Source: a virus
Lineage: Duplodnaviria; Heunggongvirae; Uroviricota; Caudoviricetes
Length of the DNA: 27,386 nucleotides
Direction: 5' to 3' (one strand)
IMG/VR virus record: IMGVR_UViG_2648501669_000002
Coordinates: 1 to 27,386 of that record
The position numbers and the translations under genes were made by a program. The notes beneath the pieces are model-generated. The model was not told where the DNA came from. It saw nothing but the letters and a program-made list of their open reading frames with translations, and searched no databases. Below are positions 1,396 to 20,343 of this stretch, piece after piece; within the stretch, counting starts at the first letter, position 1, and each line of letters starts with the position of its first letter.

Positions 1396-1405
1396 CAGGT
1401 GCTTT

Positions 1406-1693: not shown

Positions 1694-1703
1694 AGGGTGT
1701 GCG

Positions 1704-1946: not shown

Positions 1947-2056
1947 GTATATTTATGTCATGGATTGTTCTGATTATTTCGGTGGCCTGCGCAATCGGGA
2001 TTATGCGAATTATTCATTCAGTGAAAAAGATTGAGCGTTTTTTCTCTGACGAATAA
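1943..2056 (+). CDS. Small hydrophobic peptide (37 aa, single predicted TM helix)
   Basis: Not in the ORF track (under 60 aa). ATG overlaps the upstream stop as ATGA (1943-1946). Translation MSIFMSWIVLIISVACAIGIMRIIHSVKKIERFFSDE has a hydrophobic core then a basic tail. Lies in a short AT-rich patch. Confidence 0.35.
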   Translation: MSIFMSWIVLIISVACAIGIMRIIHSVKKIERFFSDE

Positions 2057-2149
2057 CAGCACAAATAAAAAACCAGATTAAATAAGAAAACGTGAAAACC
2101 ATCCGAATTAACGGAGGCATTCACACACGTAAATAATGGAGATACAAAA

Positions 2150-2560
2150 ATGAACGCAAAAGAAAAAGGCATTGTAACTGCGCTAAAAAATATATCGAAG
2201 ACCGCAAACAGAGCCATTCAGGATGCAACAAATGCAGGAATGATTGGGCCTGCCACCACAGCCATGATGATAGCAAGAGTAACCGCCGAAGCAGCCGAAA
2301 TTATCGAAAAACATGATGCTGAACTAACGGTTCTCAGAACACAACCAGTCACCGGACTGGATTTGTCTAACACCGGACGCCTTATTTACACAATTGGCTC
2401 GGAGCCACAGCAATACACCATTATCGCCGGATTACAGGATAAATACCTGATCACTCCTCACCCCATAAGGGAATCAGAAATTCTGACAAATCTCCGCCTG
2501 ATAGAGCGCTCTCAAGTCGCATTCATTGATGACGCACAGCGCACCGTATTTAACGCATAG
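2150..2560 (+). CDS. Hypothetical protein (136 aa)
   Basis: Track ORF with GGAG SD about 8 nt upstream of the ATG; no family recognised. Confidence 0.6.
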   Translation: MNAKEKGIVTALKNISKTANRAIQDATNAGMIGPATTAMMIARVTAEAAEIIEKHDAELTVLRTQPVTGLDLSNTGRLIYTIGSEPQQYTIIAGLQDKYLITPHPIRESEILTNLRLIERSQVAFIDDAQRTVFNA

Positions 2561-2583
2561 GGTTACTGGACAAAGGGGGCGCA

Positions 2584-2787
2584 ATGGCAATTAAGCGTTT
2601 TTCCGTCATTCGTTTCACATCCAGAGGGCGTGAATACGAAGTTGACGAACGGCTGATTAAAACGCTCGACCGTCACCGTTCGCAACCTGACGCGCATCAC
2701 ATTTATCTCACTGACGACACTTACTTCTGCGCCACCAACGTGGTGCAGGTGAACCTTATCCGACAGGTACAGGAGTCACGCAGATGA
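2584..2787 (+). CDS. Hypothetical small protein (67 aa)
   Basis: Track ORF preceded by AAGGGGG; stop overlaps the next start (ATGA at 2784-2787). Confidence 0.5.
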   Translation: MAIKRFSVIRFTSRGREYEVDERLIKTLDRHRSQPDAHHIYLTDDTYFCATNVVQVNLIRQVQESRR

Positions 2788-3029
2788 CCATTCTGGACTA
2801 CATCACAGCCAATCCGGGTTGTAGCGGTGGAGAAATCGCCGCCGCGCTGAATACCCCAACCACAGCCATTAATGCTGAGTTGCGCCGACTCTGGCGTGAC
2901 GGCTTAGTCATCAGAGAAGAGCGCAAAACAGGCGGTCGGTTCTCTTACCAGGTAAACCCGATGCCGTTCGGGTGTGGCAACCCACTTACTCACATGTTTA
3001 ACCAGCTACTGAAGGAAGCCAGAGCATGA
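2784..3029 (+). CDS. Small winged-helix DNA-binding protein (81 aa)
   Basis: Track ORF. Segment GCSGGEIAAALNTPTTAINAELRRLWRDGLVIREERKTGGRFSY has the helix-turn-helix plus wing pattern of small wHTH regulators; translationally coupled to neighbours on both sides. Confidence 0.6.
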   Translation: MTILDYITANPGCSGGEIAAALNTPTTAINAELRRLWRDGLVIREERKTGGRFSYQVNPMPFGCGNPLTHMFNQLLKEARA

Positions 3030-3325
3030 GCACCATCAACCACCAGGAACTACGCGAACTGGCAACTGACCTGCAACGAATGGCAACGCATCAAAAATTA
3101 CTGGCGTTTCGCGCAATGCTCTCGCCATCTGCCGTGTTGGCACTACTGGATGAGCTGGAGCACGCCAGAACCACACCTCTCGCCATTCGCCTGACACTCC
3201 GCCATGAAATCGAGGATTTCTGCGCACCGCTGGAGTCACTAGGCGAACCAGAAACGCCGGAAGCAATGCAACAAGAGTTGCTGCAACGCATCGACAAGGT
3301 TTTTGATTTCTTCCTTAACCAGTAA
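3026..3325 (+). CDS. Hypothetical protein (99 aa), possibly Ead/Ea22-like
   Basis: Track ORF. The ELRELA...VLALLDELEHAR motif is reminiscent of prophage Ead/Ea22-like N-termini; this is memory-based and weak. Confidence 0.5.
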   Translation: MSTINHQELRELATDLQRMATHQKLLAFRAMLSPSAVLALLDELEHARTTPLAIRLTLRHEIEDFCAPLESLGEPETPEAMQQELLQRIDKVFDFFLNQ

Positions 3326-3336
3326 AGGACCTCGAT

Positions 3337-3540
3337 ATGAACAAAAAGACCTGGTTTCGCGCATACATGTGGGCGCTGGTATGCGTCCTCGTTTCTCTCA
3401 TTCTGTATGCAGGACTACTCCCCCGAATGATTTCATCAGACAGCTCCTTCCTGGTATTGCTGGGCATTTTCATTGCCATGCTGTACCCGGCAGGCGTTGT
3501 TCGCCTTTTCAGTAGGTACATCAAGGAAATCAAACAATGA
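3337..3540 (+). CDS. Small membrane protein (67 aa, two predicted TM helices)
   Basis: Track ORF with AAAGGA SD. Two hydrophobic stretches (WALVCVLVSLILYAGLL and FLVLLGIFIAMLYPAGVV). Stop overlaps the start of the SPFH gene (ATGA at 3537-3540). Confidence 0.55.
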   Translation: MNKKTWFRAYMWALVCVLVSLILYAGLLPRMISSDSSFLVLLGIFIAMLYPAGVVRLFSRYIKEIKQ

Positions 3541-4367
3541 AGAAATTCAAACTCTTTCAGATTCTCCCGCTTTTTGCTGCCATCCTGCTGGTTGGTTGCG
3601 ATCGCGTTGAGCCAGGTAATGTGGGCATCAAAGTCAACAAACTGGGCGACGACAAAGGCGTCGGTGAAGTGGTTGGCGTTGGACGCTACTGGACAGGCTG
3701 GAATACAGAGGTTTACATCTTCCCAACCTTCAAACAAATGAAGACCTACGATGAGCCGTTCAGCTTTCAGATGAGTGACGGCACAACCATCGGCTATCAC
3801 ATCGGTGTGGCCTACAAGGTTGATCCATCCAAAGTTACTACAGTGTTTCAGACCTACCGCAAAGGCGTGGATGACATTACCGACACTGACCTGCGCCAGA
3901 AGATCGCCGACGCACTCAACCGACTGGCCAGCAAAATGACCACCGATAAATTTATCGACGGTGGCAAGTCTGAACTGCTGGATTCAGCACTTAAAGACAT
4001 TCAGGAGGAAATGACACCTATCGGCATTCAGGTAATGAGCCTCTCTTATGTCGGTAAACCGGAATACCCACCAACCGTTATCGACAGCATTAATGCCAAA
4101 GTTACGGCAAACCAGAAAACCCTGCAACGCGAACAGGAAGTCAAGCAACGTGAAGCAGAAGCCAACATGTTGCGCGCAGAAGCTGCCGGACAGGCTGATG
4201 CCATTCGCACAAAAGCCCAGGCTGAAGCCGACGCCATTCGTTTGCGTGGTGAAGCTCTGCGCCAGAACCCCGGCGTTATGGAGCTGGAAGCAATCAACAA
4301 ATGGAACGGCACGCTGCCGCAATACATGACCAGTAATACTGCTGTTCCGTTTGTTCCGGTGAAGTAA
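3537..4367 (+). CDS. SPFH/band-7 (prohibitin/HflK-like) domain lipoprotein
   Basis: Track ORF of 276 aa. N-terminal signal peptide with lipobox (LLVGC). Central region plus a Q/E/A/R-rich coiled-coil tail (QREQEVKQREAEANMLRAEAAGQADAIRTKAQAEADAIRLRGEA) is typical of SPFH proteins. Confidence 0.7.
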   Translation: MKKFKLFQILPLFAAILLVGCDRVEPGNVGIKVNKLGDDKGVGEVVGVGRYWTGWNTEVYIFPTFKQMKTYDEPFSFQMSDGTTIGYHIGVAYKVDPSKVTTVFQTYRKGVDDITDTDLRQKIADALNRLASKMTTDKFIDGGKSELLDSALKDIQEEMTPIGIQVMSLSYVGKPEYPPTVIDSINAKVTANQKTLQREQEVKQREAEANMLRAEAAGQADAIRTKAQAEADAIRLRGEALRQNPGVMELEAINKWNGTLPQYMTSNTAVPFVPVK

Positions 4368-4434
4368 TTCAACCCGGCCAGTGAAACCGCTGGCCGAAAA
4401 TATAACGAATAAACAAAAAGCCAGAGGACAGAAC

Positions 4435-4581
4435 ATGCACAAAGCCTTTGAACGATGGATGCGCCAGCGTTACGGCAATCGCTATGACCTGACAAGGGAT
4501 GTTGATGGCTACTACTGCCGCGAAATTGTGAAACGAATGTTTGAAGTGTGGTGTCACGCTCACGGCCTGTACGCCGTGTAA
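4435..4581 (+). CDS. Hypothetical small protein (48 aa)
   Basis: In-frame Met 19 of track ORF 4381..4581 with AGAGGA SD 6 nt upstream; last gene of the rightward early block before a terminator. Confidence 0.4.
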   Translation: MHKAFERWMRQRYGNRYDLTRDVDGYYCREIVKRMFEVWCHAHGLYAV

Positions 4582-4719
4582 TCCATGTCACTGTCAGAAG
4601 ATTAACCCATGTACACACAAAAAAACCGCTTGCCATGCCGTAATCAGTCAGGTTACATTTCCGCTGCACCTCATAAAACGGGTGCCGGGTTTCGCAGCCT
4701 GCTGACAACCAAAGCGCAC

Positions 4720-4740
4720 AACCGCGCCAGCGGTTTTTTT
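4720..4740 (+). terminator. Candidate rho-independent terminator
   Basis: Read directly: stem AACCGC/GCGGTT with GCCA loop, followed by a 7-T run (AACCGCGCCAGCGGTTTTTTT). Confidence 0.5.
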
Positions 4741-4752
4741 GTGCGTACTGTA

Positions 4753-4781
4753 TTGCCACGTCTTTTTCGCACACGAATTAT
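4753..4781 (+). promoter_or_regulatory. Candidate sigma70 promoter (TTGCCA-17 nt-AATTAT)
   Basis: Read directly; predicted start site falls at the 5' edge of the structured GC-rich element. Not scored computationally. Confidence 0.35.
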
Positions 4782-4788
4782 GGCGGGG

Positions 4789-4850
4789 CGTACGGGGCCG
4801 ACTTCGGTCGGGCCGGGTTCTTTGGTTGCCGGTACTGCGAACCCCGTACG
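4789..4850 (+). other. GC-rich nested stem-loop element (possible structured 5' leader, small RNA or protein-binding site)
   Basis: 9-bp inverted repeat CGTACGGGG (4789-4797) / CCCCGTACG (4842-4850) enclosing a 5-bp stem with UUCG tetraloop (4798-4811) and CCGG-containing dyads; non-coding in any convincing frame. Confidence 0.3.
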
Positions 4851-4919
4851 TCTCGCCACCCACAGTTTCGCAGCTCTGGATGGTGAGTTTTCAAAACTTA
4901 CAACCAAAGAGGCCACCCC

Positions 4920-5150
4920 ATGGCAAACCGCAAACAGCACCGCGCTATCGCGGAGCGTCGTCACATCCAGACTGAAATCAACCGCAGACTTTCCCGCGCA
5001 TTCCGCGTCGCTAAAATCATGCACATCAATATGCTGCATGAGCGTAGCTGCGAACTTTCAAACCTCTATTCATCCGCTGTTTTCAGCTATCTGGCGGATG
5101 ATCTGCGCGAGCTTCAGCAGCTCATCCAGCAGCAAAACAAACTCCATTAA
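4920..5150 (+). CDS. Hypothetical small basic protein (76 aa)
   Basis: Track ORF with AAAGAGG SD 7 nt upstream; first gene downstream of the promoter and leader candidate. Confidence 0.45.
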   Translation: MANRKQHRAIAERRHIQTEINRRLSRAFRVAKIMHINMLHERSCELSNLYSSAVFSYLADDLRELQQLIQQQNKLH

Positions 5151-5222
5151 TTCCTGTTCCGGGCCTTTCCTGCACCTTGCGGCGGGAGGCCTTCGCACAT
5201 CTGTAGTAAAGAGAATTGCAGC

Positions 5223-5612
5223 ATGATTGACGCTCATGACTTCACAAGATGGGTGCGGACACAGGACACCCGTCTGGCTCCCGTTCTTCAGGGATTATTT
5301 GATCTTTACATCCGTGGTCGTGACAACAGAGCACGCACTACAAAACCGGAGAATGCGGACACCCTTTATTTCACAGTAGACGACTGCTACCGCGTGGACT
5401 TCACACCACACGGGCTGGCGTTGCACTGCCTGACACCACACGGCGAATCACTGCTGGCGTATTACGACTCCCCGGCCTCCGTATTCGCGGCAATGCTGGC
5501 GCATCGCACTGCTGGCGGGTGTGCCTCGCTGAGTGAATACACCGCTGAATTTAACCGCCTTTCCGCCATCTTCTCGCAGGAGTGGCAGCGCGTGACGGGA
5601 TACCAGCCATGA
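5223..5612 (+). CDS. Hypothetical protein (129 aa), translationally coupled to gpA
   Basis: Track ORF with AAAGAG SD; stop overlaps the ATG of the replication gene (ATGA at 5609-5612). Confidence 0.55.
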   Translation: MIDAHDFTRWVRTQDTRLAPVLQGLFDLYIRGRDNRARTTKPENADTLYFTVDDCYRVDFTPHGLALHCLTPHGESLLAYYDSPASVFAAMLAHRTAGGCASLSEYTAEFNRLSAIFSQEWQRVTGYQP

Positions 5613-8434
5613 GCGAGTTTGCATGGAGCTGGAATGAACCACGACCAGCCATTGATCCGGCCAGATTTACGGAGCGCAGGCAGGAAACTGAAACCGACCT
5701 GCAACGCGCCATCCGTTACTACCTTGAGGCAGACAAAAGGGCACAGGAAGAACAGGAAGCGAAGGAAGAAGCCTTTTTCGCACAATCCGCCATGGGTAAA
5801 AAACTCATGGCATCCCTTGAGGAAGCCGGACAGCGTGAAAAGCTGGCACAGAGCATCATCAGTAAGCGCCGGGCAACAGAACAAGACCCAGTAGCCCGTG
5901 CCTTTGCTACACTAAAGGCACTACCTGTTTATCTGCGTGAACCACTGAGCCGCCACCTCTCTTTCCTGCGCAAAAAACAGGAAGCCGATCGCCAGAAAGG
6001 CAAAAAGAGCTGGCAGGCGGAACGCTATGCACGCGGAACCCTGCGCAAAATATTCGAACGTCTGGATCGCACTGACGGACGCTGGCTGACACCGGGTTAT
6101 CGCTCCCTTGCCGGGCGCGAACGCCTGGACGATTTGCTTTACCTGCCGCAGCTCAACAAGCACCAGATACAGACGCTGGCCACCATGATCGCGGCGATGT
6201 TCAGCAGCACCTTCGAAACACTCTGCGATGGCTTTGGTGCCAGAGATGGCGAGCTGACCATGGATGTAATGTTGAAGGCTTACCGGATGCTGGCTCGTAT
6301 CGCATTACGCCTGCACATCATGCCGCCACATTACGAAGCCCTGAACAAGAGCGAACCGGATACGGAACTGCTGCCGGGTGCAATCCTTCGCCTGACCTGT
6401 GCGGACTGGTGGAAACGCAAACTGTGGCTGTTACGTTGCGAGTGGAGAGAAGAACAACTCCGCGCCGCCTGTCTGGTTTCCAGAAAAACATCGCCTTATC
6501 TGAGCCAGGACGCGTTAAGCGAGTTTCGCGCACAGCGCGAGAAAACACGCGATTTCCTGAAAAGTTTCATGCTGGAAAACGAAGACGGGTTCACGATTGA
6601 TCTCGAGACAGTGTATTACGCGGGAGTAAGTAACCCGGTTCACCGTAAGGCAGAAATGATGGCCACCATGAAGGGGCTGGAACTTCTGGCTGAAGCCCGT
6701 GGTGACAAAGCGGTGTTTCTGACTGTCACCTGCCCGTCAAAATACCACGCAACAACGGAGAACGGTCATCCGAATCCCAAATGGAACGGGGCCACCATGC
6801 GCGACTCCAGCGATTACCTGGTTAACACGTTTTTTGCGGCGGTCCGCAAGAAACTGAACCGCGACGGCCTGCGCTGGTATGGCATCCGCACGGTGGAGCC
6901 TCACCATGACGGCACCGTGCACTGGCATATGATGGTCTTTGCCCATCCGGAAGAAATCGACACCATTGTGTCCCACACCCGCGATATTGCCATTCAGGAA
7001 GATCGTCACGAGCTGGGCGATGATATTACTCCGCGCTTTAAGGCGGAGTATGTAGACGGCTCAAAAGGCACGCCAACCAGCTACATCGCCACCTACATCG
7101 GAAAGAACCTGGACAGCCGCGCCGTGGATGGCATCGACCCGAAAACGGGCAAGCCACGCGTTGACCACGAAACAGGAAAATCAATGGCCGAGAGCGTGGA
7201 GCGCGCCATCGGCTGGGCGCGCCTTCACCGGGTCCGCCAGTTCCAGTTCTTTGGCATTCCCTCCCGTCAGGTGTGGCGTGAACTCCGCCGCCTTGCCAGC
7301 CAGATGGCACGCAACCCGGAAGGCCAGCAACGGCTGAAGGATGACGCAATGGACGCGGTTCTTGCTGCCGCTGATGCCGGATGTTTTGCCACCTACATTG
7401 AGAAACAGGGCGGCGTACTTGTTCCACGCAAAGACTACCTGATTCGCACCGCCTACGACCTCGCAGATGAGCTGAACGATTACGGTGAACAGAGCGTACA
7501 GATTTACGGGATCTGGTCGCCGCTCATCGGGGAGTCTTCCCGCGTATGTACACATCCGGATAACTGGAAGCTGGTAAGACGCAAACCGGAAGCGGGAGAC
7601 AGCGCCCGCGAAAATGGTTTTGACCTTCAGGGCGGCCCTGCCGCCCCTTGGACTCATGGCAATAACTGTCCCCGTGTACAGGAAACAGGCAACAGCGGGA
7701 CAGAACTGTCGGAAGAGCAACCAACACCGTGGCCGCAGATCCCTGACAGCGTTGATGTGGATGAATGGATGCGCTCACTGAAACGGCACGAACGCCGGGC
7801 GCTGATGCGTTCGCTGCGTGACAAACAGGCAAAAAACAGCAGTGATGAAATGCAGAGCTGGACACAGAGCCGCAAACAGCCGCGACCTTTGCCTGATAAC
7901 CACGAGTTACTCGCTAAAGAATGGCGGGAGTCTGCTGAATCTCTCGGCCTGCATATTGGTGAACAGCAGATGCAGCACCTGTTACGGGGCGGCAGTCTGT
8001 ACGTTGACGGCAGCATCATTGCACCGCAGGGATTTGAAATTGTACGCAAACCGGATACCCGCCCGGACAGCCGAATCACGCAGCTCTGGCAGCGCCTGAG
8101 CCGTAATCACGGCGTAAGCAGCACGGAGATCCGCCATAACCCGGTCGCCAGTTATCTGGAACAGCTAGGGGCATCAGACCCCGAAGCCGCCGCACGCCTG
8201 GCATCCACACTTCAGCAAGACCAGAACACCATGAAAACACCCGTTACCGTGCTTTCTGACATGCTGCGCGCCATCCGTGACGCAGAGCACGCACAGAGAA
8301 TCAGTGAAACCACTGAACGCGCCCGCCGCAAAGCAAACCTGCTGCGGGGTGGCCTGACCAGTGGAAACAAAAAACAGACAGAAACGGGATTCACAAATCC
8401 CGTAAATGAGCAAAAAACGCGCCGCGATATATGA
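5609..8434 (+). CDS. A: Rolling-circle replication initiation endonuclease, P2 gpA family
   Basis: Track ORF 5582..8434 (GTG at 5582; ATG at 5609 coupled to the upstream stop is preferred). Contains the HUH-type motif VEPHHDGTVHWHMMVFAH and a paired-tyrosine segment TSYIATYIGKN, as in the P2 gpA endonuclease domain, plus an FLTVTCPSKYH motif. At 941 aa it is longer than P2 gpA (about 760 aa, from memory). Confidence 0.85.
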   Translation: MSEFAWSWNEPRPAIDPARFTERRQETETDLQRAIRYYLEADKRAQEEQEAKEEAFFAQSAMGKKLMASLEEAGQREKLAQSIISKRRATEQDPVARAFATLKALPVYLREPLSRHLSFLRKKQEADRQKGKKSWQAERYARGTLRKIFERLDRTDGRWLTPGYRSLAGRERLDDLLYLPQLNKHQIQTLATMIAAMFSSTFETLCDGFGARDGELTMDVMLKAYRMLARIALRLHIMPPHYEALNKSEPDTELLPGAILRLTCADWWKRKLWLLRCEWREEQLRAACLVSRKTSPYLSQDALSEFRAQREKTRDFLKSFMLENEDGFTIDLETVYYAGVSNPVHRKAEMMATMKGLELLAEARGDKAVFLTVTCPSKYHATTENGHPNPKWNGATMRDSSDYLVNTFFAAVRKKLNRDGLRWYGIRTVEPHHDGTVHWHMMVFAHPEEIDTIVSHTRDIAIQEDRHELGDDITPRFKAEYVDGSKGTPTSYIATYIGKNLDSRAVDGIDPKTGKPRVDHETGKSMAESVERAIGWARLHRVRQFQFFGIPSRQVWRELRRLASQMARNPEGQQRLKDDAMDAVLAAADAGCFATYIEKQGGVLVPRKDYLIRTAYDLADELNDYGEQSVQIYGIWSPLIGESSRVCTHPDNWKLVRRKPEAGDSARENGFDLQGGPAAPWTHGNNCPRVQETGNSGTELSEEQPTPWPQIPDSVDVDEWMRSLKRHERRALMRSLRDKQAKNSSDEMQSWTQSRKQPRPLPDNHELLAKEWRESAESLGLHIGEQQMQHLLRGGSLYVDGSIIAPQGFEIVRKPDTRPDSRITQLWQRLSRNHGVSSTEIRHNPVASYLEQLGASDPEAAARLASTLQQDQNTMKTPVTVLSDMLRAIRDAEHAQRISETTERARRKANLLRGGLTSGNKKQTETGFTNPVNEQKTRRDI
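8384..8403. repeat. Palindrome ACGGGATT-CACA-AATCCCGT (copy 1, inside the 3' end of gpA)
   Basis: Read directly: perfect 8-bp arms. Confidence 0.45.
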
Positions 8435-8456
8435 AGCGCGCACAAAACAGGCGAAA

Positions 8457-8476
8457 GCGGGAGTTCAGAATCCCGT
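8457..8476. repeat. Related imperfect palindrome GCGGGAGTTCAGAATCCCGT (copy 2, upstream of parM)
   Basis: Shares the GAATCCCGTAA half with copy 1; centres about 73 bp apart; 34 nt upstream of the parM ATG. Confidence 0.4.
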
Positions 8477-8509
8477 AACCGATTAATTAATCAACATAAG
8501 GAAATCGAC

Positions 8510-9469
8510 ATGAAAATTTGTATCGACGACGGCTCCACCAACATCAAGCTGGCATGGACTGAGAACGGCGAACGCCGCAACGCCATCAGCCCGAACAGCT
8601 TCAAGTCGGAATGGTCAGCGCCGTTCGGTGGCACGCAGCCCGCGAACTACATGCTTGATGGCGTGCGCTATGGTTTTGATCCGGTCAGCGATCGCTTTGT
8701 CCAGACGACCGACACGCAATACCAGTACAGCGATGTGAATGTTATTGCCATTCATCATGCGCTGGTCAAATCAGGCATCACACCACAGGAGGTGGATGTG
8801 GTTGTCACCCTGCCACTGAGCGAGTATTTCGATACAAACGCACAGCCGGACATGGCCAACATCAGCCGCAAAAAAGCGAACGTTATGCGCCCGGTGGAGT
8901 ACCAGAACGGCGAAGCATTCACTATCCGTAACGTGCGGGTTATGCCTGAATCCATTCCGGCAGGCTTTAAAGCACTGGCTGACATGAGTCCGTTTGAATC
9001 CCTGCTGATTGTGGATTTGGGCGGAACCACGCTGGATGTGGCAAAGGTTCAGGGGCAACTGGCAGGTATCAGCCAGGTGTTTTGCGATCCACACGTAGGC
9101 GTTTCTCTGATGGCCGATGCCGTGCTGTCGGTGATGGCCACCAACGGTATGCGTACCAGTCACCACATCGCTAATACCATTATCGAACATCGCCACGATG
9201 AAGCCTGGCTGCGCCAGCACATCCACAATGACGCGCATTACGCCAGCCTGATGGCAGTTATTCGTGAAAAGGAGGAAACACTGAAACAACGCGTGATCCG
9301 CGCGCTGGCGGGTTTTTCGGGTTACGGGCGGGTGATGGTTGTCGGTGGAGGGGCGGAGATTGTGGCACCCGCCATCCGCGAAGCCTGCGGAGTTAATGCG
9401 ACTTTCATCGCGGACGGGGTGCCACAGTTTGCTCTGGTTAATGGGCTGTACGCAATGGACAAGGAGTAA
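8510..9469 (+). CDS. parM: ParM-like actin-type segregation ATPase
   Basis: Track ORF of 319 aa. N-terminus MKICIDDGSTNIKLAW closely matches plasmid R1 ParM (MLVFIDDGSTNIKLQW, from memory), with further ParM-like segments (ISPNSFK, QYSDVNVIAIHHAL, DLGGTTLD). AAGGA SD. Confidence 0.85.
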   Translation: MKICIDDGSTNIKLAWTENGERRNAISPNSFKSEWSAPFGGTQPANYMLDGVRYGFDPVSDRFVQTTDTQYQYSDVNVIAIHHALVKSGITPQEVDVVVTLPLSEYFDTNAQPDMANISRKKANVMRPVEYQNGEAFTIRNVRVMPESIPAGFKALADMSPFESLLIVDLGGTTLDVAKVQGQLAGISQVFCDPHVGVSLMADAVLSVMATNGMRTSHHIANTIIEHRHDEAWLRQHIHNDAHYASLMAVIREKEETLKQRVIRALAGFSGYGRVMVVGGGAEIVAPAIREACGVNATFIADGVPQFALVNGLYAMDKE

Positions 9470-9473
9470 ACCA

Positions 9474-9785
9474 ATGACGACACCAACCAGACGGATAAGT
9501 TTCTATCTGAAGCCCGCCGCCGTCAAGAACGAAGGCGAAGCATGCGCCTGGCTGGACAGCCTTACACCAGAAGCCCGCAAAAGCGGCCAACGCGTGGCTT
9601 TTCTGGCCGGGCTGGCACTTCTGAAAATGAATCCGGCAGAGGCTTACCGACTGGCTGCATGGGCTGATGATGAAGCGTTATCAGTGACACAGACCAGGAC
9701 AGAACGCCCCGCATCACAGCCAGTATCAACCGCACAGATAACCAGCCAGATGGCCGGGAATATCCAGGCGTTATTTCCTGAATAA
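9474..9785 (+). CDS. parR: ParR-like centromere-binding adaptor
   Basis: In-frame Met 46 of track ORF 9339..9785, 4 nt after the parM stop. RRISFYLKP...LDSLTPEARKSGQRVAFLAGLAL parallels R1 ParR (RRTIAFKLNP...LDSIPQGERSRLNRAALTAGLAL, from memory). Confidence 0.7.
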   Translation: MTTPTRRISFYLKPAAVKNEGEACAWLDSLTPEARKSGQRVAFLAGLALLKMNPAEAYRLAAWADDEALSVTQTRTERPASQPVSTAQITSQMAGNIQALFPE

Positions 9786-9791
9786 CACAAC

Positions 9792-9813
9792 ATCAGGGCA
9801 TATTTGCCCTGAT
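9792..9813. other. Perfect hairpin (9-bp stem ATCAGGGCA / TGCCCTGAT, 4-nt loop) just after the parR stop
   Basis: Read directly; no trailing U-tract, so a regulatory or processing role is as likely as termination. Confidence 0.3.
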
Positions 9814-9848
9814 ATCCCCTCTCAAACAAGGCAGCAACAAACTGCCCG

Positions 9849-9876
9849 TTGAATAACACAAATTACATGTTATGAT
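9849..9876 (+). promoter_or_regulatory. Candidate sigma70 promoter (TTGAAT-16 nt-TATGAT) for the 9900..10660 cassette
   Basis: Read directly; the -35 overlaps the second copy of the 12-bp direct repeat TGAATAACACAA (9779-9790 and 9850-9861). Confidence 0.35.
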
Positions 9877-9899: not shown

Positions 9900-10286
9900 G
9901 TGTCTTACGTTATGAATGATCAAGATTATGGGCTTGATACCCTATTGGATATGCACGGCTACCAGCACCACATGGATAATGGCTACTGGTGGAAGATTGA
10001 AGCCTACCGGGTCAGCCCAAGCCCATTCAGACCCCACGGGATACGTTACAATCTGACATTACATGACCAGTACAATTCCCGCATATTTGGGATGGATAAT
10101 GCTCATGGAATAAAACCACCGAAGAAGGGCCGTTTCACAGGGAAATTAACTGTTTACGACCATGTGCACCGCACAACATTTGACAAAGGCTATCCCTATG
10201 AATTCATTTCTGCGGAACAGCTTTTATCTGACTTCTTCGATAACGTAGATCGCATCATTGACGAAATCACAAGGGGGAATCAATGA
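9900..10286 (+). CDS. Uncharacterised protein (128 aa), candidate toxin/effector of a two-gene module
   Basis: Track ORF (GTG at 9900; first ATG at 9912). AT-richer than flanking phage genes. His/aromatic-rich segments (HGYQHHMDNGYWWK, YDHVHRTTFDKGYPYEF). Stop overlaps the start of the next gene (ATGA at 10283-10286). Confidence 0.6.
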   Translation: MSYVMNDQDYGLDTLLDMHGYQHHMDNGYWWKIEAYRVSPSPFRPHGIRYNLTLHDQYNSRIFGMDNAHGIKPPKKGRFTGKLTVYDHVHRTTFDKGYPYEFISAEQLLSDFFDNVDRIIDEITRGNQ

Positions 10287-10660
10287 AAGCCCGTATCGGG
10301 ATTATCCCTGAAAATATCCTCCGCCAGCGGCTACTGGATGTCGCCAGAGGAAAACGTAAACCACTGCCAGATGAACCAAAAGTATGGTTTTCTTCACTGC
10401 ACGCTGTAGGGCAAGCTCTGAGTAACGAAAACATTGCTCTGTTACGTCTGATGGATGAAGAAAAACCTCAAACAATGACAGAGTTGGCAGAAATGTCAGG
10501 CAGGAAACTGAGCAATCTTTCAGTAACCTTAAAAATGCTGAGCGGCTACGGTTTTGTCAGCCTGGAAAAGAAAGGCAATACCATTCTCCCGAAAGCATTA
10601 TTCACCGATTTTGAAATCATCATTGATCCATCTGTCGGAACCACTCATCGGGCCGCCTGA
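10283..10660 (+). CDS. Winged-HTH DNA-binding protein (125 aa), candidate antitoxin/regulator
   Basis: Track ORF. Segment PQTMTELAEMSGRKLSNLSVTLKMLSGYGFVSLEKKGNTI has a MarR/wHTH-like helix-turn-helix-wing pattern; translationally coupled to the upstream ORF. Confidence 0.65.
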   Translation: MKARIGIIPENILRQRLLDVARGKRKPLPDEPKVWFSSLHAVGQALSNENIALLRLMDEEKPQTMTELAEMSGRKLSNLSVTLKMLSGYGFVSLEKKGNTILPKALFTDFEIIIDPSVGTTHRAA

Positions 10661-10913: not shown

Positions 10914-11171
10914 CTATCCAGCCTGCAACAGCTCCAGCGCCATCTGTTTTTCTTCCGGGCGCATCCGTTCAATCAACAGCTTTAACACACCGTTATCCAG
11001 CCCGCTGGGCACCAGTGTGTGCGAGTAGGTCAGATTCATCACCCAGGTATGTCCGCACTCGAGACGGGTGCAACGGTAATACACATCAGCAAACTGATCG
11101 GTTTTCCAGGCTGTTTTCTCAATCACTGCACGAGCACCACAGCAATGACACCGCGCTTTCTGTCTGCGCAT
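10914..11171 (-). CDS. ogr: Ogr/Delta-family zinc-finger late transcription activator
   Basis: In-frame Met 24 of track ORF 10914..11240, preceded on the minus strand by GGGAGGTGGAAA. Cys pattern C-x2-C...(23 aa)...C-x4-C (CHCC...CTRLEC) matches the P2 Ogr zinc-finger topology (CPLC...CQNVNC, from memory). Confidence 0.7.
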   Translation of the reverse strand: MRRQKARCHCCGARAVIEKTAWKTDQFADVYYRCTRLECGHTWVMNLTYSHTLVPSGLDNGVLKLLIERMRPEEKQMALELLQAG

Positions 11172-11236
11172 TTTCCACCTCCCGGAACAACGTTTTACTG
11201 CTGCTGATTTTACCCGCTCCTTCTCCATGTCGCACA

Positions 11237-12271
11237 TCACTCCGTGGCTTCATTAAATTCAAGAATAAATTCCACCTGCCCCAGTCGCCTGATATCAGGG
11301 TCACTATTGATTCCCTCCATAATCAGGCGGCGCATCGGAATAACCTCATCTCTGTAATATGCCTCGCGGGATTTCAGCGGATCACCAAGCCCGGCCGTAT
11401 TTGCGGGAATGATGCCGGCAAGTCCGGGTGGAAAACGGTGCGCAACGAGCTGATCCTGGGCACTGATGGTTTTTATATTCAGGAATTCATCTTTTGTACC
11501 TGAATCCCCGATAGGGATCACCTTAACGCCTTCTTTGTCTCCGCCAGGTATATTGATAAACATGGATTTAAAATTGCCCGCCCCTTTTGACGCCTCTATC
11601 TTTTTACGGAATTCCGCCTCGAGCTCGGGATCCATGTCCGGGTCAGTGGAATACAGGATATAACCAAGATGTGCGCCGTTCTTGTAATACTTGCGGCGAA
11701 AGCGGGTGGCATCCACATTCAGCATGGCAGATTCCATCCCGTGAATATAATCCGGGACACCGTAAACCTGCTGTTGTGGGTCATAAATTGCCACGAACAC
11801 CACTTCGCCTGGCGGGTAAACGAGATCTTCCAGTGCCGCCTGCACAATCACCGTGCCACCTTCGTTGTTGCGTCGCAGGTACAGAGAAGGCAACGTATGC
11901 AGGCGCACCACCCGCCCGAAGCCATTGCGCACTTTAAGCAGCCCCATATCCCCGAATATCAGCAGATTGGTCACTGCTGCCGCCATGGCGGCGTGTGTCA
12001 TACCACCACCACCCCGAAAACCCTGCATGATCATATTCACGCGCGCACGCAATACCGCGCCGTGATACGGTGCGATATTGGACAACATGGCGAGATCCAT
12101 GCGCTCAATGGGCGGCGTGTACCAGCCGTTATAGCCATCCCAGAGCGAGCCGTAATAACAGCCCCATGCAGCGACCGGTTCCGGGTCACCAAATTCAATA
12201 AACGTCATTTTGCTGGCTGTTTTTTTTGCCACGCCATCGTGTAACACGGGGTATTTTTTCTTTTTACTCAT
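11237..12271 (-). CDS. Q: Portal protein, P2 gpQ-like
   Basis: Track ORF of 344 aa, the same length as P2 gpQ, directly downstream of and overlapping the terminase ATPase gene on the same strand, in the conserved P2 Q-P arrangement. Confidence 0.85.
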   Translation of the reverse strand: MSKKKKYPVLHDGVAKKTASKMTFIEFGDPEPVAAWGCYYGSLWDGYNGWYTPPIERMDLAMLSNIAPYHGAVLRARVNMIMQGFRGGGGMTHAAMAAAVTNLLIFGDMGLLKVRNGFGRVVRLHTLPSLYLRRNNEGGTVIVQAALEDLVYPPGEVVFVAIYDPQQQVYGVPDYIHGMESAMLNVDATRFRRKYYKNGAHLGYILYSTDPDMDPELEAEFRKKIEASKGAGNFKSMFINIPGGDKEGVKVIPIGDSGTKDEFLNIKTISAQDQLVAHRFPPGLAGIIPANTAGLGDPLKSREAYYRDEVIPMRRLIMEGINSDPDIRRLGQVEFILEFNEATE

Positions 12272-14051
12272 CTGACAGGATCCATGTTGATTTGCGCTTG
12301 TGCTTATAGTTCAGGGGTTCATTACTTGCGGCATGAGCTATGGCAAAGAAGATGTCAGCGTGCCCGGTTTCTTCGCTACGTTCGGCGGTGAAAGTGACTT
12401 TATTGCCGCTGTTGGTGGATTCCTGACGAATGGCCAGGAATGATGCCGGAATATCCGTGGCTTCCTCATCCCACTCAATACGGTTGGCGTAAACCAGATC
12501 CAGCATCTTCATCACCAGGCGGTTTTTGGATTCCACGCTGTAATGAATGGCCACTGTTTCACGGCGGGCAAATCCCTGAACCAGCTCAAAGACACCGTAG
12601 CCAAGACCGGTGACGTCGATGCCGATAAACGTCATGTTATAGCGCGCCTTAATGCCGCGGATACGCTCTGCCATAAACTGGAATGACATGCTGCGCCAGT
12701 GGTGTTTTTCCAGCACGCGGAATCGTTCTGCCGCAACCAGCGGCGGTGCCAGCACAACAAATGTGGCGTTATCGCCGGAGCGCGCAGGATCAAAGCCGCC
12801 CCACACCTCACGGTTACCAAATGGCATGGGCTCTTCCGGGTGAAAATCCTCCCACGTACTGACATCAACACCACAACGCACAAGATCATCGAATTTAAAG
12901 ACGCTCTCTTTGTCATCCACAAACACACACATAAACAGCATATTGAACGCTGTTTCGTTGTATCTCTCGCGCAGCTCGTTGATATCAGCAAGGTTAAAGC
13001 CGCCGGCAATGGCATCTTCCAGCGTAACCACATAGCGCCACTGACCATCCGGACATTCACGCCCACCATCGCGCAGCTCATCAAAGGATGGAAACTCAAC
13101 CCCTTTTCGTTTCGGATCGCCTTTGCGCCATTCATCGCCAGACCAGAACGGGTAGCCCTGGTGTGTTTTGGATGACGGCGTGGAGAAATAGGTAATACGC
13201 CAGTGTTTATGGGTGGCCATCCCTGATGCCACTTCATTGAGACGGCGAAAACCGGGGATCCACAGGTATTCATCAATATACAGGTGGCCGCTGTTTGACT
13301 GCGCTGTGTTACTGTTGGTCGCCAGAAAATACAGTTCAGCCAGATTACTTAACTTAACCGGATTGCCTTTAATGGGAATGCCAAACTCTGTTTGTGCAAT
13401 TTTTACAATATAAGTACGGAACACTTCGGCCTGACGTTTTGATGCCGATAAAAATATCTGTGTGTCGCCGGTTAATACTGCATCTTCAAATGCCTCAAAC
13501 GCGAAGTAATACGTCGCCCCAATCTGGCGGGATTTAAGCAGGTTGCGTACACGGCGGAATTTGTTTTCACGCAGATGCAACTGATAAGCAAACAACTTTT
13601 TCGTAAACGGCTCAAAACTTTCAGCAGTCAGTCCGGAAACGTCATTAGTTTTGCGGGGACGCTCTTTCTTACCTGCACCTTTTTCTCCGCGTTCTTCTTT
13701 TCCATAACGGCCAGGCTGGGGAATGTCCACTCCCATTCGCGCAATCTCAGCCATTCGTTCCGTGTGCTTGTTTCTGACCGACATCAGTTTGACGTGATGA
13801 CCAATCAGGCGATCAAGCTCATCGTGTTCTTCCTGGGTCTTATGGTCACGTTCCGCCAGTACAGCGAGACGCCGGGCGATAACATCTTCCACGCCTTCCG
13901 TATTGAGCTGCGTGTACCACTCAAACTTTGTCGCCCAGTAATAAACAATTCGCGGGCTGTTCAGTCCGAGTTTCTTTTGTATTTCTTTTGGTGTGTGCCT
14001 TTTCAGATAGAGTGATTTTGCTGCGGCAATAACTTCTTCAGAATAAGCCAT
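12264..14051 (-). CDS. P: Terminase large (ATPase) subunit, P2 gpP-like
   Basis: Track ORF of 595 aa (P2 gpP is about 590 aa), divergent from the scaffold gene; sequence is of the P2-type terminase ATPase family (recognised from memory). Confidence 0.9.
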   Translation of the reverse strand: MAYSEEVIAAAKSLYLKRHTPKEIQKKLGLNSPRIVYYWATKFEWYTQLNTEGVEDVIARRLAVLAERDHKTQEEHDELDRLIGHHVKLMSVRNKHTERMAEIARMGVDIPQPGRYGKEERGEKGAGKKERPRKTNDVSGLTAESFEPFTKKLFAYQLHLRENKFRRVRNLLKSRQIGATYYFAFEAFEDAVLTGDTQIFLSASKRQAEVFRTYIVKIAQTEFGIPIKGNPVKLSNLAELYFLATNSNTAQSNSGHLYIDEYLWIPGFRRLNEVASGMATHKHWRITYFSTPSSKTHQGYPFWSGDEWRKGDPKRKGVEFPSFDELRDGGRECPDGQWRYVVTLEDAIAGGFNLADINELRERYNETAFNMLFMCVFVDDKESVFKFDDLVRCGVDVSTWEDFHPEEPMPFGNREVWGGFDPARSGDNATFVVLAPPLVAAERFRVLEKHHWRSMSFQFMAERIRGIKARYNMTFIGIDVTGLGYGVFELVQGFARRETVAIHYSVESKNRLVMKMLDLVYANRIEWDEEATDIPASFLAIRQESTNSGNKVTFTAERSEETGHADIFFAIAHAASNEPLNYKHKRKSTWILSDE

Positions 14052-14100
14052 AAACTACCTGTGGAATTTATTTTAATGGGTTTTCATCTTTTTCCGGTTC

Positions 14101-14118
14101 GTTCCGTAGCGTTCCGTA
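14101..14118. repeat. Tandem direct repeat GTTCCGTA-GC-GTTCCGTA in the P-O divergent promoter region
   Basis: Read directly. Confidence 0.35.
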
Positions 14119-14174
14119 ATATCCCATTATTTGCCGCAGGCATTTTTTTAACGATTATCTGTTTTCGGTATTTT

Positions 14175-14196
14175 TCGGATATATGCGCATATCCGA
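14175..14196. promoter_or_regulatory. Near-perfect 22-bp palindrome TCGGATATATGCGCATATCCGA in the P-O intergenic region
   Basis: 8-bp perfect arms; lies in the 230-bp AT-rich divergent region where P2-type phages have Ogr-dependent late promoters (established for P2; assignment here is inference). Confidence 0.35.
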
Positions 14197-14281
14197 AAGT
14201 ACCGGAAATTAATCAGATGACGACGTTTTCATTTCTCCGTTAAATAACGCCAGTTTAATTTTTATCAGCGGATTAATTCAG

Positions 14282-15178
14282 ATGACGAAGCAGAAAACAG
14301 ACTGGGTTGTGGTTGCCACATCAGGCCCCACCATCGACGGTCGGGAAATTGATCCGAAGTGGCTGACGGATGCCGCCGAGGTTTACAACCCGGACGAGCG
14401 AGCCGCCATGCTCTGGCCATATCACGCCGATTCCGGATGGCGTGCCTTCACCAATAACTACGGCATTGTTGATGCCCTGAAAGTCGAAAAATTTGGTGAA
14501 AAGGTGCAGCTTAAAGCACGCCTGATCCCAAATCGCTTCCTGATTGAAGCCAATAAGGCCGGGCAGAAACTTTTTACCTCCATTGAAGTGCGGGAAAACT
14601 ATCTGGGCACGGGCAAATTCTTTGTGTCCGGTATCGCCGTGACGGATACCCCAGCCAGCATTAACACTACACGCCTGCAGTTTTCCATGGGGGAAGCCAT
14701 CCATATGGGCAACGCAGAGGCGCTGAATTTTACGCTGCAGCCTGATGATGAGCAGGCCAAGCGCAACTTCTTCTCCCGCTTCTTCTCATCTGACAATCAC
14801 CAACAGGGAATTTACCAAGCCATGAACGAAGAACAGTTCAGCCAGTTAATGGGTGCCATTAATAAAACCAGTGAACGCCTGGACGAGCTGGAAAAAAACG
14901 TCGCGCAGTTCAGCGCGAAGGATGCCCCGAAAGATACCGGTGATAACAAGCCGGAAGGCAGCACCGGCGATCAGGGGCAGGACAACGCAGAACAGAACAA
15001 CAAGGACGACAAAACCTTCACGCTGACCACCGAGCAGGGCGAAAAGCTGTTCTCCACAGTGAACGCCATCGCGGAGAAGGTTACCAGTATGGAAACCGCA
15101 TTTGCTGAACTCAGCAAGGACGCCACGAAGCTGCCGGGCAACAATCCGGCCGGTGGCGAAACTTTTAACCTGGTGTAA
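14282..15178 (+). CDS. O: Capsid scaffolding protein, P2 gpO-like
   Basis: Track ORF of 298 aa; N-terminal region (VVVATSGPTIDGREIDP...FVSGIAVTDTPAS) parallels P2 gpO; conserved position. Confidence 0.85.
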   Translation: MTKQKTDWVVVATSGPTIDGREIDPKWLTDAAEVYNPDERAAMLWPYHADSGWRAFTNNYGIVDALKVEKFGEKVQLKARLIPNRFLIEANKAGQKLFTSIEVRENYLGTGKFFVSGIAVTDTPASINTTRLQFSMGEAIHMGNAEALNFTLQPDDEQAKRNFFSRFFSSDNHQQGIYQAMNEEQFSQLMGAINKTSERLDELEKNVAQFSAKDAPKDTGDNKPEGSTGDQGQDNAEQNNKDDKTFTLTTEQGEKLFSTVNAIAEKVTSMETAFAELSKDATKLPGNNPAGGETFNLV

Positions 15179-15192
15179 CCGGAGAGAGCGCA

Positions 15193-16206
15193 ATGAATTT
15201 CACACCAGAAGCACAAAAGCTGGTTAATCGCTATATCAGCGAACTGCAAAAAACATTCAGTGACTGCGAACGCTCGAGCGATCGTTACTTTTCACTGACC
15301 GAACCGCGCAGCATTGCCCTGCGTAAAGCCCTGCTGGAAAGCACGGAGTTTCTGAGTTTCATCACCTGCATGGACGTTCCGCACCCGCAGGGGCAGGTCG
15401 TCACCGTGGGCGAATCCACACTGCGCACCGGTCGCGTGAAAAGCGGTCGTTTCGCTAAAGGTTCGGGCATCAAAGGCAACGAATTTAAACTCGTTGAAAC
15501 TGATTCCTGCTGCGTGATCACCTGGGAACAACTCGCCATCTGGGCGAATGCCGGCAGCCCGCAGGAATTTTTCAACCTGATGAACTCCGCCGCCGTCACC
15601 AACTTTGCGCTGGATATGCTGCGCATTGGCTTTAACGGTAAAACAGCAGCGGAAAACTCTGACCCGGAAAGTCATCCGAACGGCGAAGACGTCAACATCG
15701 GCTGGCATGAAATCGCCAAAAAGTGGGGAGAACAGCCCGGCAATACCTCCCGTATTCTGACAGACGCCGTTACCCTGGGCGAAGGCGGCGATTATGTCGG
15801 TCTTGATGCCATGGCCTCAGACCTGATCCGCACTTACATCCCGGCACAGTATCACAACGACCCACGACTTACCGTACTGGTCGGCGCAGACCTTGTGGCT
15901 GCTGAAGAACTACGCCTCTACAACAAAGAGGATAAGCCTACCGAAAAAGTGGCCGCACAGTTGCTGACAAAGAACATTGCAGGCCGCAAGGCTATCATTC
16001 CGCCGTTTATGCCGGGCAAACGTATGGTGGTGACCATGCTGCCAAACCTGCAGATCCTGACGCTGAAAGGCTCCCGCCGCCGCAAGGCAGAAGATGTGGG
16101 CGATCGCAAACAGTTCGAAAACTCATACTGGCGTTATGAGGGGTACGCCCTGGGCGATCCGGATTTATATGCTGCCGTGGATGAGTCTGCGGTCACCATC
16201 TCCTGA
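15193..16206 (+). CDS. N: Major capsid protein, P2 gpN-like
   Basis: Track ORF of 337 aa; segments LRIGFNGKTAAENSD, GEGGDYVGLDAM and DPRLTVLVGADL parallel P2 gpN (MAGFNGVKRAETSD, GKGGDYASLDAL, DPDLVVIVGRQL, from memory). Confidence 0.85.
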   Translation: MNFTPEAQKLVNRYISELQKTFSDCERSSDRYFSLTEPRSIALRKALLESTEFLSFITCMDVPHPQGQVVTVGESTLRTGRVKSGRFAKGSGIKGNEFKLVETDSCCVITWEQLAIWANAGSPQEFFNLMNSAAVTNFALDMLRIGFNGKTAAENSDPESHPNGEDVNIGWHEIAKKWGEQPGNTSRILTDAVTLGEGGDYVGLDAMASDLIRTYIPAQYHNDPRLTVLVGADLVAAEELRLYNKEDKPTEKVAAQLLTKNIAGRKAIIPPFMPGKRMVVTMLPNLQILTLKGSRRRKAEDVGDRKQFENSYWRYEGYALGDPDLYAAVDESAVTIS

Positions 16207-16223
16207 TAAACGGAGCGCACGGT

Positions 16224-16934
16224 ATGCCAACGCCAATGCAGCGACAACGTGCCCGACAGATGGATGAGCGCCGTGCGGCGCTCATGACCAGAACAGACGG
16301 GCGCGCCGTCAGCACAGAGAGTCAGCACATTAAGCTGCTGGCACTGGATAACGATGTCAGACAACTGCACAACATGGAGCTGCTGTCTGACAAGCTGGAA
16401 TTCAAGCGGAACACGCTGCTGCCCCGCTGGCTGCCACACGCACAGGCTTATCTGGAGGGGGAACGCGTCTATCAGAATCCCATTCTGGTGTACTGCATCA
16501 TCTGGCTGTTCGATACCGGGCAGTTTGAGATGGCGCTGCGGTGGGCTGACATTGCCATTGAGCAGGGGCAAAAGACGCCGGAGAACTTCAAAAGCGAGCT
16601 GCCAACGTTTGTGGCCCATTTCATTCTTGAATGGGCAGAAGCCGAAGCTGAACGCGGGAACAGTATCGCGCCATATTTTCAGCAGGTGTTTGAAAAAATC
16701 CGCGACAAATGGCGCGTGAATGAACGCCTTGCTGCCCGCTACTGGCGCTTTGCAGGCATCCTGCTGCTGCGCGGCGATGACGGCAAGCCACAGGCCAGCG
16801 CAATTAACGATCCGGAGAGACTGCAACAGGCCGACCAGTGCCTGGAACGGGCTGCCTGGCTGCATCCCAAAATTCAGGTGAAAACCCTGCGCCAGCGCAT
16901 TGCCGCAAGACTGCGCGCGTTGCAGGGCACGTAA
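16224..16934 (+). CDS. M: Terminase small/endonuclease subunit, P2 gpM-like
   Basis: Track ORF of 236 aa (P2 gpM is about 247 aa); conserved position after N. Confidence 0.8.
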   Translation: MPTPMQRQRARQMDERRAALMTRTDGRAVSTESQHIKLLALDNDVRQLHNMELLSDKLEFKRNTLLPRWLPHAQAYLEGERVYQNPILVYCIIWLFDTGQFEMALRWADIAIEQGQKTPENFKSELPTFVAHFILEWAEAEAERGNSIAPYFQQVFEKIRDKWRVNERLAARYWRFAGILLLRGDDGKPQASAINDPERLQQADQCLERAAWLHPKIQVKTLRQRIAARLRALQGT

Positions 16935-17032
16935 ACGACTCCCAACAACCGGGCGGGCGCGGTGGAGGTGTGCCGGTAAAAGCCATCAGCACACTGCGGA
17001 AACCGGTCAGCCCGCCTTTCCCCGGAGTGAGC

Positions 17033-17527: not shown

Positions 17528-17536
17528 GGAAATGGT

Positions 17537-18720: not shown

Positions 18721-18739
18721 CAAAATCAGGAGACAAATT

Positions 18740-20340: not shown

Positions 20341-20343
20341 ATC

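Follow-up and report, generated by a model that had tools for sequence, protein, structure and literature searches.

The 27,386-nt stretch of DNA analysed here over its whole length (hereafter the window) is IMG/VR virus record IMGVR_UViG_2648501669_000002, from a Caudoviricetes virus, and it carries an actin-type partition cassette in the early region of a P2-like phage. This cassette consists of parM, parR and a candidate centromere, parC, and its sequence indicates that it is very probably an intact ParMRC system kept by selection, predicted to work as a type II (R1-type) module. ParMRC is the textbook plasmid-segregation machine. Comparisons with related prophages indicate that, in one lineage of integrating P2-like phages, parMR is a constant component of the early/replication module and is inherited vertically; this lineage is made up of the P88-like Xuanwuvirus and their relatives in Enterobacterales. 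In this reading the cassette is not accessory cargo, nor does it indicate a plasmid lifestyle. We propose, with a probability of roughly 0.55, that it functions while an integrating phage is transiently extrachromosomal, and not in stable plasmid lysogeny.

The original prediction, made by reading the sequence alone, had recognized a ParM/ParR pair inside a P2-type element and had offered two interpretations, an extrachromosomal phage-plasmid or an actin-like pair co-opted as cargo in a variable locus. The identification stood, but neither of the two interpretations fits well. The question is what the cassette does, not whether it is present.

The partition proteins

parM (8510..9469, + strand) follows a ribosome-binding site, AAGGA, at 8498-8502 and codes for a protein of 319 residues which, by homology, is an actin-fold, filament-forming ATPase of the ParM/StbA family. 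Its similarity to R1 ParM, initially noticed in the N-terminal part, extends over the full length: residues 2-316 align with the R1 protein (PDB 1mwk) with an E value of 9e-93, and the Pfam signatures StbA_N (4e-82) and ParM C-terminal domain (1e-68) match end to end. The nucleotide-binding motifs are intact (phosphate-1 IDDGSTNIK, PESIPAG, DLGGTTLD and GGGAE), and the protein belongs to PHROG 691, named 'partition protein'. An NCBIfam scan yielded only sub-threshold matches for ParM and none for ParR.

The partner gene, parR (9474..9785, + strand), is predicted to code for a ribbon-helix-helix, centromere-binding adaptor of 103 residues. We rejected the TTG at 9339 given as its start by the mechanical open reading frame (ORF) call, because the ATG at 9474 lies 4 bases past the parM stop, behind GGAG, and agrees with the gene calls of relatives. 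With its start thus revised, the ParR-like nature of the partner was confirmed: the protein matches Pfam PF10784, Plasmid_stab_B (4e-24), and belongs to PHROG 2515. A single-sequence search of the PDB gave no match for ParR, and a profile built from eight phage and plasmid ParRs matched the ParR/StbB protein of pB171 (PDB 2jd3) with an E value of 4e-15.

Alignment of the ParRs showed that the N-terminal strand RRISFYLKP is invariant from phage to plasmid proteins. The C-terminal N-x4-F/L motif, N..LF(P), is similarly kept, with N96 and F101 invariant from phage to plasmid-type ParRs. The R1 ParR included in this alignment serves as an illustration only; the conclusions rest on two plasmid-type loci, L021 and L022, and on 2jd3. 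Two ParR alleles accompany near-identical ParM proteins, one of 103 residues, as in the window, and one of 104 residues, found at seven of the related loci. The N-terminal DNA-binding parts of the two alleles are similar, and their middle and C-terminal parts are unalignable at the DNA level except for the terminal N..LFP.

A core gene pair of one P2-like lineage

parM starts 75 bp after the stop codon of gene A, on the same strand. Gene A (gpA; 5612..8434, + strand), directly upstream, codes for a P2-type rolling-circle replication endonuclease of 940 residues (Pfam Phage_GPA, PF05840, 1e-130). The order of ORFs around the cassette is gpA, parM, parR, two small cargo ORFs, ogr/delta, portal and terminase, and so the predicted placement between the replication gene and the head genes is correct. 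This order, gpA-parM-parR followed by a variable slot, then ogr in some cases, portal and terminase, is kept in prophages of Escherichia coli, E. albertii, Salmonella, Plesiomonas, Hafnia, Serratia and Enterobacter. The gpA-parM-parR synteny was found in every relative that we looked at, down to 54% ParM identity (54-63% for Plesiomonas, Hafnia, Serratia and Enterobacter, with the Plesiomonas and Hafnia ParMs at 62-63%). The genomic contexts of ParM homologues at 49-50% identity are a conjugative element and an integrated plasmid. Both parM and parR are present in 14 of the 14 P88-group phage records and in all the prophage relatives inspected. A scan of the genome collection with the single ParM gave three near-identical loci; the deeper relatives were reached through protein searches and per-protein contig look-ups.

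One near-identical homologue stands apart by its label. A 226-kb contig named Vagococcus sp., a Firmicute (NZ_JBQPOM010000071.1), codes for a ParM that is 98% identical to that of the window; this is most likely a contamination or a mislabelled enterobacterial contig.

The slot after parR differs in composition from one relative to another, with HicAB, an HTH/Peptidase_M78 pair, DUF3368, a KAP NTPase, an Rrf2 regulator or ead/Ea22. As parMR is conserved with the replication module and the genes beyond parR vary, the variable locus begins just after the cassette. In the window the slot spans approximately 0.9 kb and holds a pair of cargo genes with a 4-nt overlap (9900-10286 and 10283-10660, both on the + strand) that is unlike the P88 cargo and is preceded by a promoter-like site at 9849-9876. 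The second gene of the pair codes for a winged helix protein of the HVO_A0114 type (Pfam, 1e-15), with a weak PADLOC resemblance to CRISPR-associated CasR/CARF regulators. The first is without family match, and its counterparts in relatives are labelled 'TumE (weak)'. The two genes may together encode a toxin-antitoxin or defence-like system.

A neighbour-joining tree of 107 ParMs places all the proteins whose P2-like context is known in a single clade, separate from R1 and other plasmid ParMs. The bootstrap value of the clade is 69%, and that of each of its two subclades is 100%. This is the comparison of plasmid and phage ParMs that the original prediction had called for, and it indicates that parMR probably has a single origin in the P2-like lineage. 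Among the proteins of the plasmid collection, none is 60-95% identical to the window ParM, the best true plasmid ParMs being at approximately 52%, and we therefore rejected a recent capture of parMR from a resident plasmid. In the phage collection, ParM was found only in the 14 P88-group records, with a protein 99.7% identical to that of the window in P88 itself, and in the phage-plasmid D6 at 48% identity. Homologues of gpA are present in 378 phage records, including P2, 186 and PSP3.

Among E. coli-type loci, parM has a pairwise ratio of non-synonymous to synonymous substitutions (dN/dS) of 0.04, against 0.24 for parR, compared within one allele, and 0.30 for gpA at the same loci. Synonymous divergence (dS) in the same prophages is also lower for parM (0.08) than for gpA (0.18), possibly a sign that one parM allele has spread by recombination. 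The 11 distinct parM alleles compared are all free of internal stops. Of the 1303 complete E. coli genomes that carry the cassette, 1278 retain 80% or more of its length. Taken with the synteny with gpA to 54% ParM identity and the separate phage clade, the dN/dS value of parM contradicts the reading of the cassette as cargo in a variable locus.

A candidate two-site centromere

Repeats upstream of parM, which the original prediction had mentioned, are indeed present. A 38-nt unit occurs twice, the copies being 73 bp apart (direct repeat D1), and in each there is an 18-bp palindrome with the pattern CGGGAnT-N4-AATCCCG. The first unit (8368..8405), with the palindrome CGGGATTcacaAATCCCG at 8385-8402, is located inside the 3' end of gene A, over its last codons, and coincides with repeats D1 and I24. 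The second (8441..8478), with the palindrome CGGGAGTTCAGAATCCCG at 8458-8475, falls within the 75 bp that separate gpA from parM, 52 bp upstream of the ATG start codon of parM. We consider these paired palindromes, from their sequence and position, as a candidate parC centromere. A search of the window for the palindrome pattern returned the two candidate parC sites, for a chance expectation of 0.59 matches, and the next best site, at 6621-6638, requires two mismatches.

Over 20 E. coli-type loci, the half-sites of the palindromes are conserved and the 4-nt spacer varies. The half-sites and the DNA-reading strand of ParR are identical across both ParR alleles. The two-site layout recurs with another sequence upstream of parM in Plesiomonas (6336 and 6408 of locus L016, 72 bp apart) and Hafnia (7872 and 7945 of locus L017, 73 bp apart). 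The members of the Serratia/Enterobacter subclade have instead an inverted repeat of 14-20 nt with 26-28 nt between its arms, to which the Serratia locus adds an 11-mer direct repeat. The plasmid-type locus L022 harbours a classical array of short iterons, with many TATCTC repeats.

A conserved AT-rich box, ATTAATTAATCAAC (8482..8495, + strand), directly precedes the parM ribosome-binding site, and its ATTAATCAA portion is common to the upstream regions of E. coli, Plesiomonas and Hafnia. This box could correspond to the -10 region of a weak promoter, or to a leader element. A hand-picked promoter in this interval, TTCAGA-16-ATTAAT, is not claimed, since it matches the consensus at 8 of 12 positions, below the threshold of 9 of 12, and position 2 of its second hexamer is not the A that is required. 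A consensus scan from the gpA stop to parM found no terminator-like site on the + strand.

Directly after parR, a hairpin of 12 pairs (9789..9816, inverted repeat I23) marks the end of the conserved gpA-parMR module. It may also be the end of the transcript; on the + strand there is no T-run behind the stem. An exact 12-nt direct repeat, TGAATAACACAA, flanks this hairpin at 9779-9790 and 9850-9861, the copies being 71 bp apart. Located at the end of the homology with P88 (9813), this repeat pair may be a module-exchange junction.

Chromosomal location of the cassette

The fragment parC-parM-parR is present in 1303 of 5426 complete E. coli genomes (24%), including that of the enteropathogenic strain E2348/69. 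In these genomes the cassette occupies 1449 chromosomal places, versus 2 places in plasmid records; a single genome can have as many as three copies. In the assembly collection, the exact ParM protein was found in 194 blocks. The places of exact ParM that we read are all in prophages (10 of 10, one genome contributing two), with gpA upstream and head genes downstream. Each of these ten prophages has a tyrosine integrase, most have a repressor and Cox, and host genes lie alongside. Four more loci, found through the leftmost ORF of the window, are likewise integrated, and thus 14 of the 14 loci with captured flanks are next to host genes. The integration sites are varied and include pheA/tyrA, ppa, pdxB and prpC/a citrate-synthase-family gene. 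To distinguish between integrated and circular states, as the original prediction had suggested, we relied on relatives, the window itself having no host flank. By this proxy the cassette is almost always chromosomal, and we did not find the extrachromosomal maintenance that characterizes a phage-plasmid; the idea of a phage-plasmid as the normal state of the element is not supported.

A few records bear on a free form. NZ_CP148288.1, a circular record of 34,461 bp labelled 'plasmid', is an entire phage of this type, integrase included; it is the one assembly that directly hints at a free circle. Because this 34.4-kb circular record corresponds to a whole phage, a transient or occasional episomal phase is possible. 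The Plesiomonas relative is on a phage-sized contig of 32 kb that ends 141 bp past the integrase gene, which is compatible with active excision but proves nothing. The other plasmid-labelled records of the cassette are mostly not phage-plasmids. Two of them were examined: the IncC conjugative KPC plasmid pC-Ec2-KPC (NZ_MK439959.1) carries a piece of P88-like prophage bounded by IS26, with gpA-parMR, head and tail genes, and the second record is linear and represents a decayed prophage fragment riddled with IS1; several others, of 0.27-1.4 Mb, are far above the size of a phage genome.

Proposed role and alternative explanations

ParR ribbon-helix-helix dimers would bind both 18-bp palindromes, which lie 73 bp, or approximately seven helical turns, apart, probably with one dimer pair on each. 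The conserved C-terminal tail of ParR, homologous to that of plasmid ParRs, would capture ATP-ParM filaments by their ends. In R1, filaments that grow at the ParR/parC complex are established to push sister DNA molecules apart; here they would act on sister DNA circles. P2-type gpA replication yields monomeric double-stranded circles, and it is these extrachromosomal circles of the phage genome that are presumed to be the substrate. With gpA-made circles as its substrate, the module would therefore act in the episomal phase, after infection or induction, where it would spread out or position the circles as they replicate and share them out to the daughter cells. Occupancy of the second site would probably also regulate the expression of parMR.

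Several observations weigh against this proposal. R1 parC consists of ten 11-bp iterons, and only two ParR sites are visible in the window; these palindromes could be mere operators and not a centromere. R1-type ParM acts on pairs of low-copy plasmids, versus the many copies of the lytic phase here. A consensus scan of the gpA-parM interval detected no sigma-70 promoter upstream of parM. Approximately one-fifth of the member sequences in databases are truncated ParM forms (clusters P0006, P0010 and P0017), so that some lysogens appear to tolerate loss of the cassette. As for the shared ancestry of the phage proteins, the support for their monophyly is only moderate (69%), and genomic contexts were checked for five lineages. 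Finally, the P88 and phiSM papers list the cassette as a partition gene or, for phiSM, a 'fitness' gene, without studying the genes.

A dual lifestyle, in which a low-copy circular episome stabilized by ParMRC for many generations coexists with integration, as was suggested for P88 (Pfeifer et al. 2021), appears unlikely. The partition module is complete and under strong selection, the 34,461-bp circle and the 32-kb Plesiomonas contig ending 141 bp past its integrase gene are of the appropriate size, P88 was classed with phage-plasmids by gene content (PMC7969092) and the P2-like phage KS14 is a known plasmid prophage (PMC3091744). These points are outweighed by the distribution of the cassette over complete genomes of E. 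coli, with 2 places on plasmid records and 1449 chromosomal ones, and by the nature of the plasmid-labelled records, namely a prophage piece borne by an IncC plasmid, a linear decayed fragment and several records too large to be phages. A tyrosine integrase is present at all loci with a captured left end, mostly with a repressor and Cox. Moreover, some genomes have two or three copies of the same parC/ParR, which as plasmids would be mutually incompatible, and gpA is the only replication gene, whereas KS14 has a plasmid RepB and ParA. We consider it less probable still that the cassette provides an accessory function expressed in the lysogen, in the manner of P2 tin and old, with ParR/parC, with or without ParM, excluding plasmids or phages that share the centromere, or acting as a regulator. 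Such a function would be in line with the slot bordered by the cassette, which holds toxin-antitoxin and defence-like genes in relatives, with the 'fitness' label of the phiSM paper and with the two ParR alleles found with one ParM, which could reflect diversifying specificity. Yet the presence of parMR is invariant among relatives and tracks the gpA lineage over deep divergence, the half-sites of parC and the DNA-reading strand of ParR are the same in both alleles, and the most constrained gene of the region is the ATPase, which would be unnecessary for incompatibility by ParR/parC alone. The PADLOC models of defence systems gave no match for ParM or ParR, and the reading as defence genes was therefore set aside.

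An action on the host chromosome, whereby ParMR would push apart the sister copies of a prophage locus bearing parC, is very improbable. It has in its favour the chromosomal location of parC and parMR in 24% of complete E. coli genomes and the description of functional chromosome-encoded ParMs in Firmicutes (PMC12270681). Nevertheless, the integration sites differ widely, so that ParMR would not be serving any one position on the chromosome, and it is with the replication gene of the phage, not with a host locus, that the cassette is inherited. The idea that the cassette is the non-functional relic of an ancestral plasmid-phage fusion has the least to recommend it and is hardly tenable. Truncated ParM variants in many assemblies and the phage record 503458, in which parM is split into pieces, would fit a relic, but the dN/dS of 0.04, the lack of internal stops in all 11 distinct parM alleles and the conservation of all three components in at least five genera do not. 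We thus retain the proposal that ParMRC serves a transient extrachromosomal phase of an integrating phage.

Other features of the window

The early region of the window (1033-9813) is 87-95% identical at the DNA level to Escherichia phage P88 and its relatives, including Citrobacter phage phiSM. P88 and phiSM belong to the same group, Xuanwuvirus, in the Peduoviridae. The homology with P88 stops at 9813, 28 bp past parR. According to a profile scan, the virion gene set present alongside parMR comprises portal, terminase, scaffold, capsid and tail genes. The late region (10914-27386) has P2-type portal, terminase, scaffold, capsid and small terminase genes, with ogr/delta adjoining the portal gene, and tail genes of the DUF2586/HP1-Orf24 type. 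It has no close megablast match among the 50,697 records of the phage collection. Since the late genes are of another type than the P88-like early region, this phage is a mosaic. The same mosaic type is a frequent E. coli prophage, found at seven of the loci collected, apparently without a sequenced isolate.

The left end of the window is occupied by the N-terminus of an OrfA transposase of the IS3 family, IS2-like (3-110, - strand; Pfam HTH_Tnp_1, E value 4e-4), which runs off the end. As the left end is a fragment of an insertion sequence (IS), the integrase/immunity end of the prophage and its junction with the host are outside the window. This fragment probably accounts for the >5000 plasmid records that match the window at 99% identity or more. 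An AT-rich ORF at 436-903 (- strand, 155 residues) is without family match; in relatives it is located between cox and the DUF4761 gene, in the opposite orientation. This ORF is probably a further accessory gene. Also in the early region, an SPFH/Band-7 gene (3537-4367, + strand) has approximately 90% DNA identity to a gene of phage phiP27 that is also carried by many E. coli plasmids of ~90 kb. No plasmid-type replication initiator of the Rep_3 or RepB type was found in the early region, where the P2-type gpA is the sole replication gene. A search for the cos sequence of P2 gave no match.

Comparison with known systems

The cassette and the phage-plasmid idea are already known from public annotation and from the literature. 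GenBank and RefSeq annotate the genes of the P88 group as ParM and partition protein, and PHROGs has families for both. A screen by gene content placed P88 among phage-plasmid candidates, noted its partition genes, scored it as having 'plasmid-like replication genes' and suggested that it has both episomal and integrated states (Pfeifer et al. 2021, PMC7969092). Added here are the deep conservation of parMR as a core of a P2-like lineage, a constraint on parM above that on gpA, the two-palindrome architecture and the near-always chromosomal location. Relative to P88 and phiSM, the window shares the early region (87-95% DNA identity) and ParM (99.7%), and it differs by its late genes, by the cargo after parR and by the IS fragment at its left end.

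A close homologue of R1-type ParM is thus chromosomal in 24% of complete E. coli genomes, tied to a P2-like gpA and more conserved than it. If the role in an extrachromosomal phase is confirmed, the viral use of an actin cytoskeleton would extend to common enterobacterial prophages and would be accessible in a tractable E. coli system with a small, two-site centromere. If such phages persist as episomes, the censuses of prophages and phage-plasmids would need adjusting.

The cassette resembles R1/NR1 ParMRC and par2 of pB171 in its order, candidate parC-parM-parR, with repeats immediately upstream of parM, in the full-length alignment of its ParM with that of R1 and in its ParR, which is of the same family as pB171 ParR/StbB and has kept the C-terminal tail. 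Unlike those, it is found directly after gene A in an integrating P2-like phage and not on a plasmid, and its ParM belongs to a phage clade distinct from R1 and plasmid ParMs. The plasmid-type loci have arrays of short direct iterons, as in L022, in contrast with the two 18-bp palindromes 73 bp apart of the window.

In P2, the 'TO region' between gene A and the packaging genes holds orf91, tin and old. The cassette has the same map position, after gene A and before the portal and terminase genes. Unlike the P2 genes, which are accessory, lineage-variable exclusion genes, parMR is constant, and only the slot past parR varies.

The phage-plasmids P1/D6, N15, SSU5 and KS14 similarly combine phage structural genes with a partition system, the ParM of D6 being 48% identical to that of the window. 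KS14, a Burkholderia P2-like plasmid prophage with RepB, ParA and a serine recombinase (PMC3091744), indicates that a P2-like virion module is compatible with life as a plasmid. In contrast to the lineage of the window, which is chromosomal and has gpA, a tyrosine integrase, a repressor and Cox, all these are found as plasmids with plasmid-type initiators. The functional chromosome-encoded ParMs described in Firmicutes in 2025 were treated as occasional, in a study that does not mention phages or E. coli (PMC12270681).

The best functional analogue of the cassette appears to be AlpAC of prophage CGP3 in Corynebacterium glutamicum, where AlpA, bound to a site upstream of alpAC, links the circular phage DNA to filaments of AlpC. 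The two proteins, whose induction is early, are required for the phage to replicate efficiently (PMC4446434). The two systems have in common an integrated prophage, an actin-like ATPase, a co-transcribed DNA-binding adaptor and an adaptor site upstream. They differ in that the host of CGP3 is of another phylum and the window proteins are close homologues of classical plasmid ParM and ParR. The likeness is one of gene arrangement, with parMR directly past gpA and no + strand terminator separating the two. We tentatively put forward, at somewhat less than even odds, a more specific proposal: an integrating P2-like lineage would have long kept ParMRC, with a minimal two-palindrome centromere, as a viral cytoskeleton that moves or apportions gpA-made circles in the extrachromosomal phase. 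It would then represent a Gram-negative counterpart of AlpAC and a non-plasmid function for R1-type ParM.

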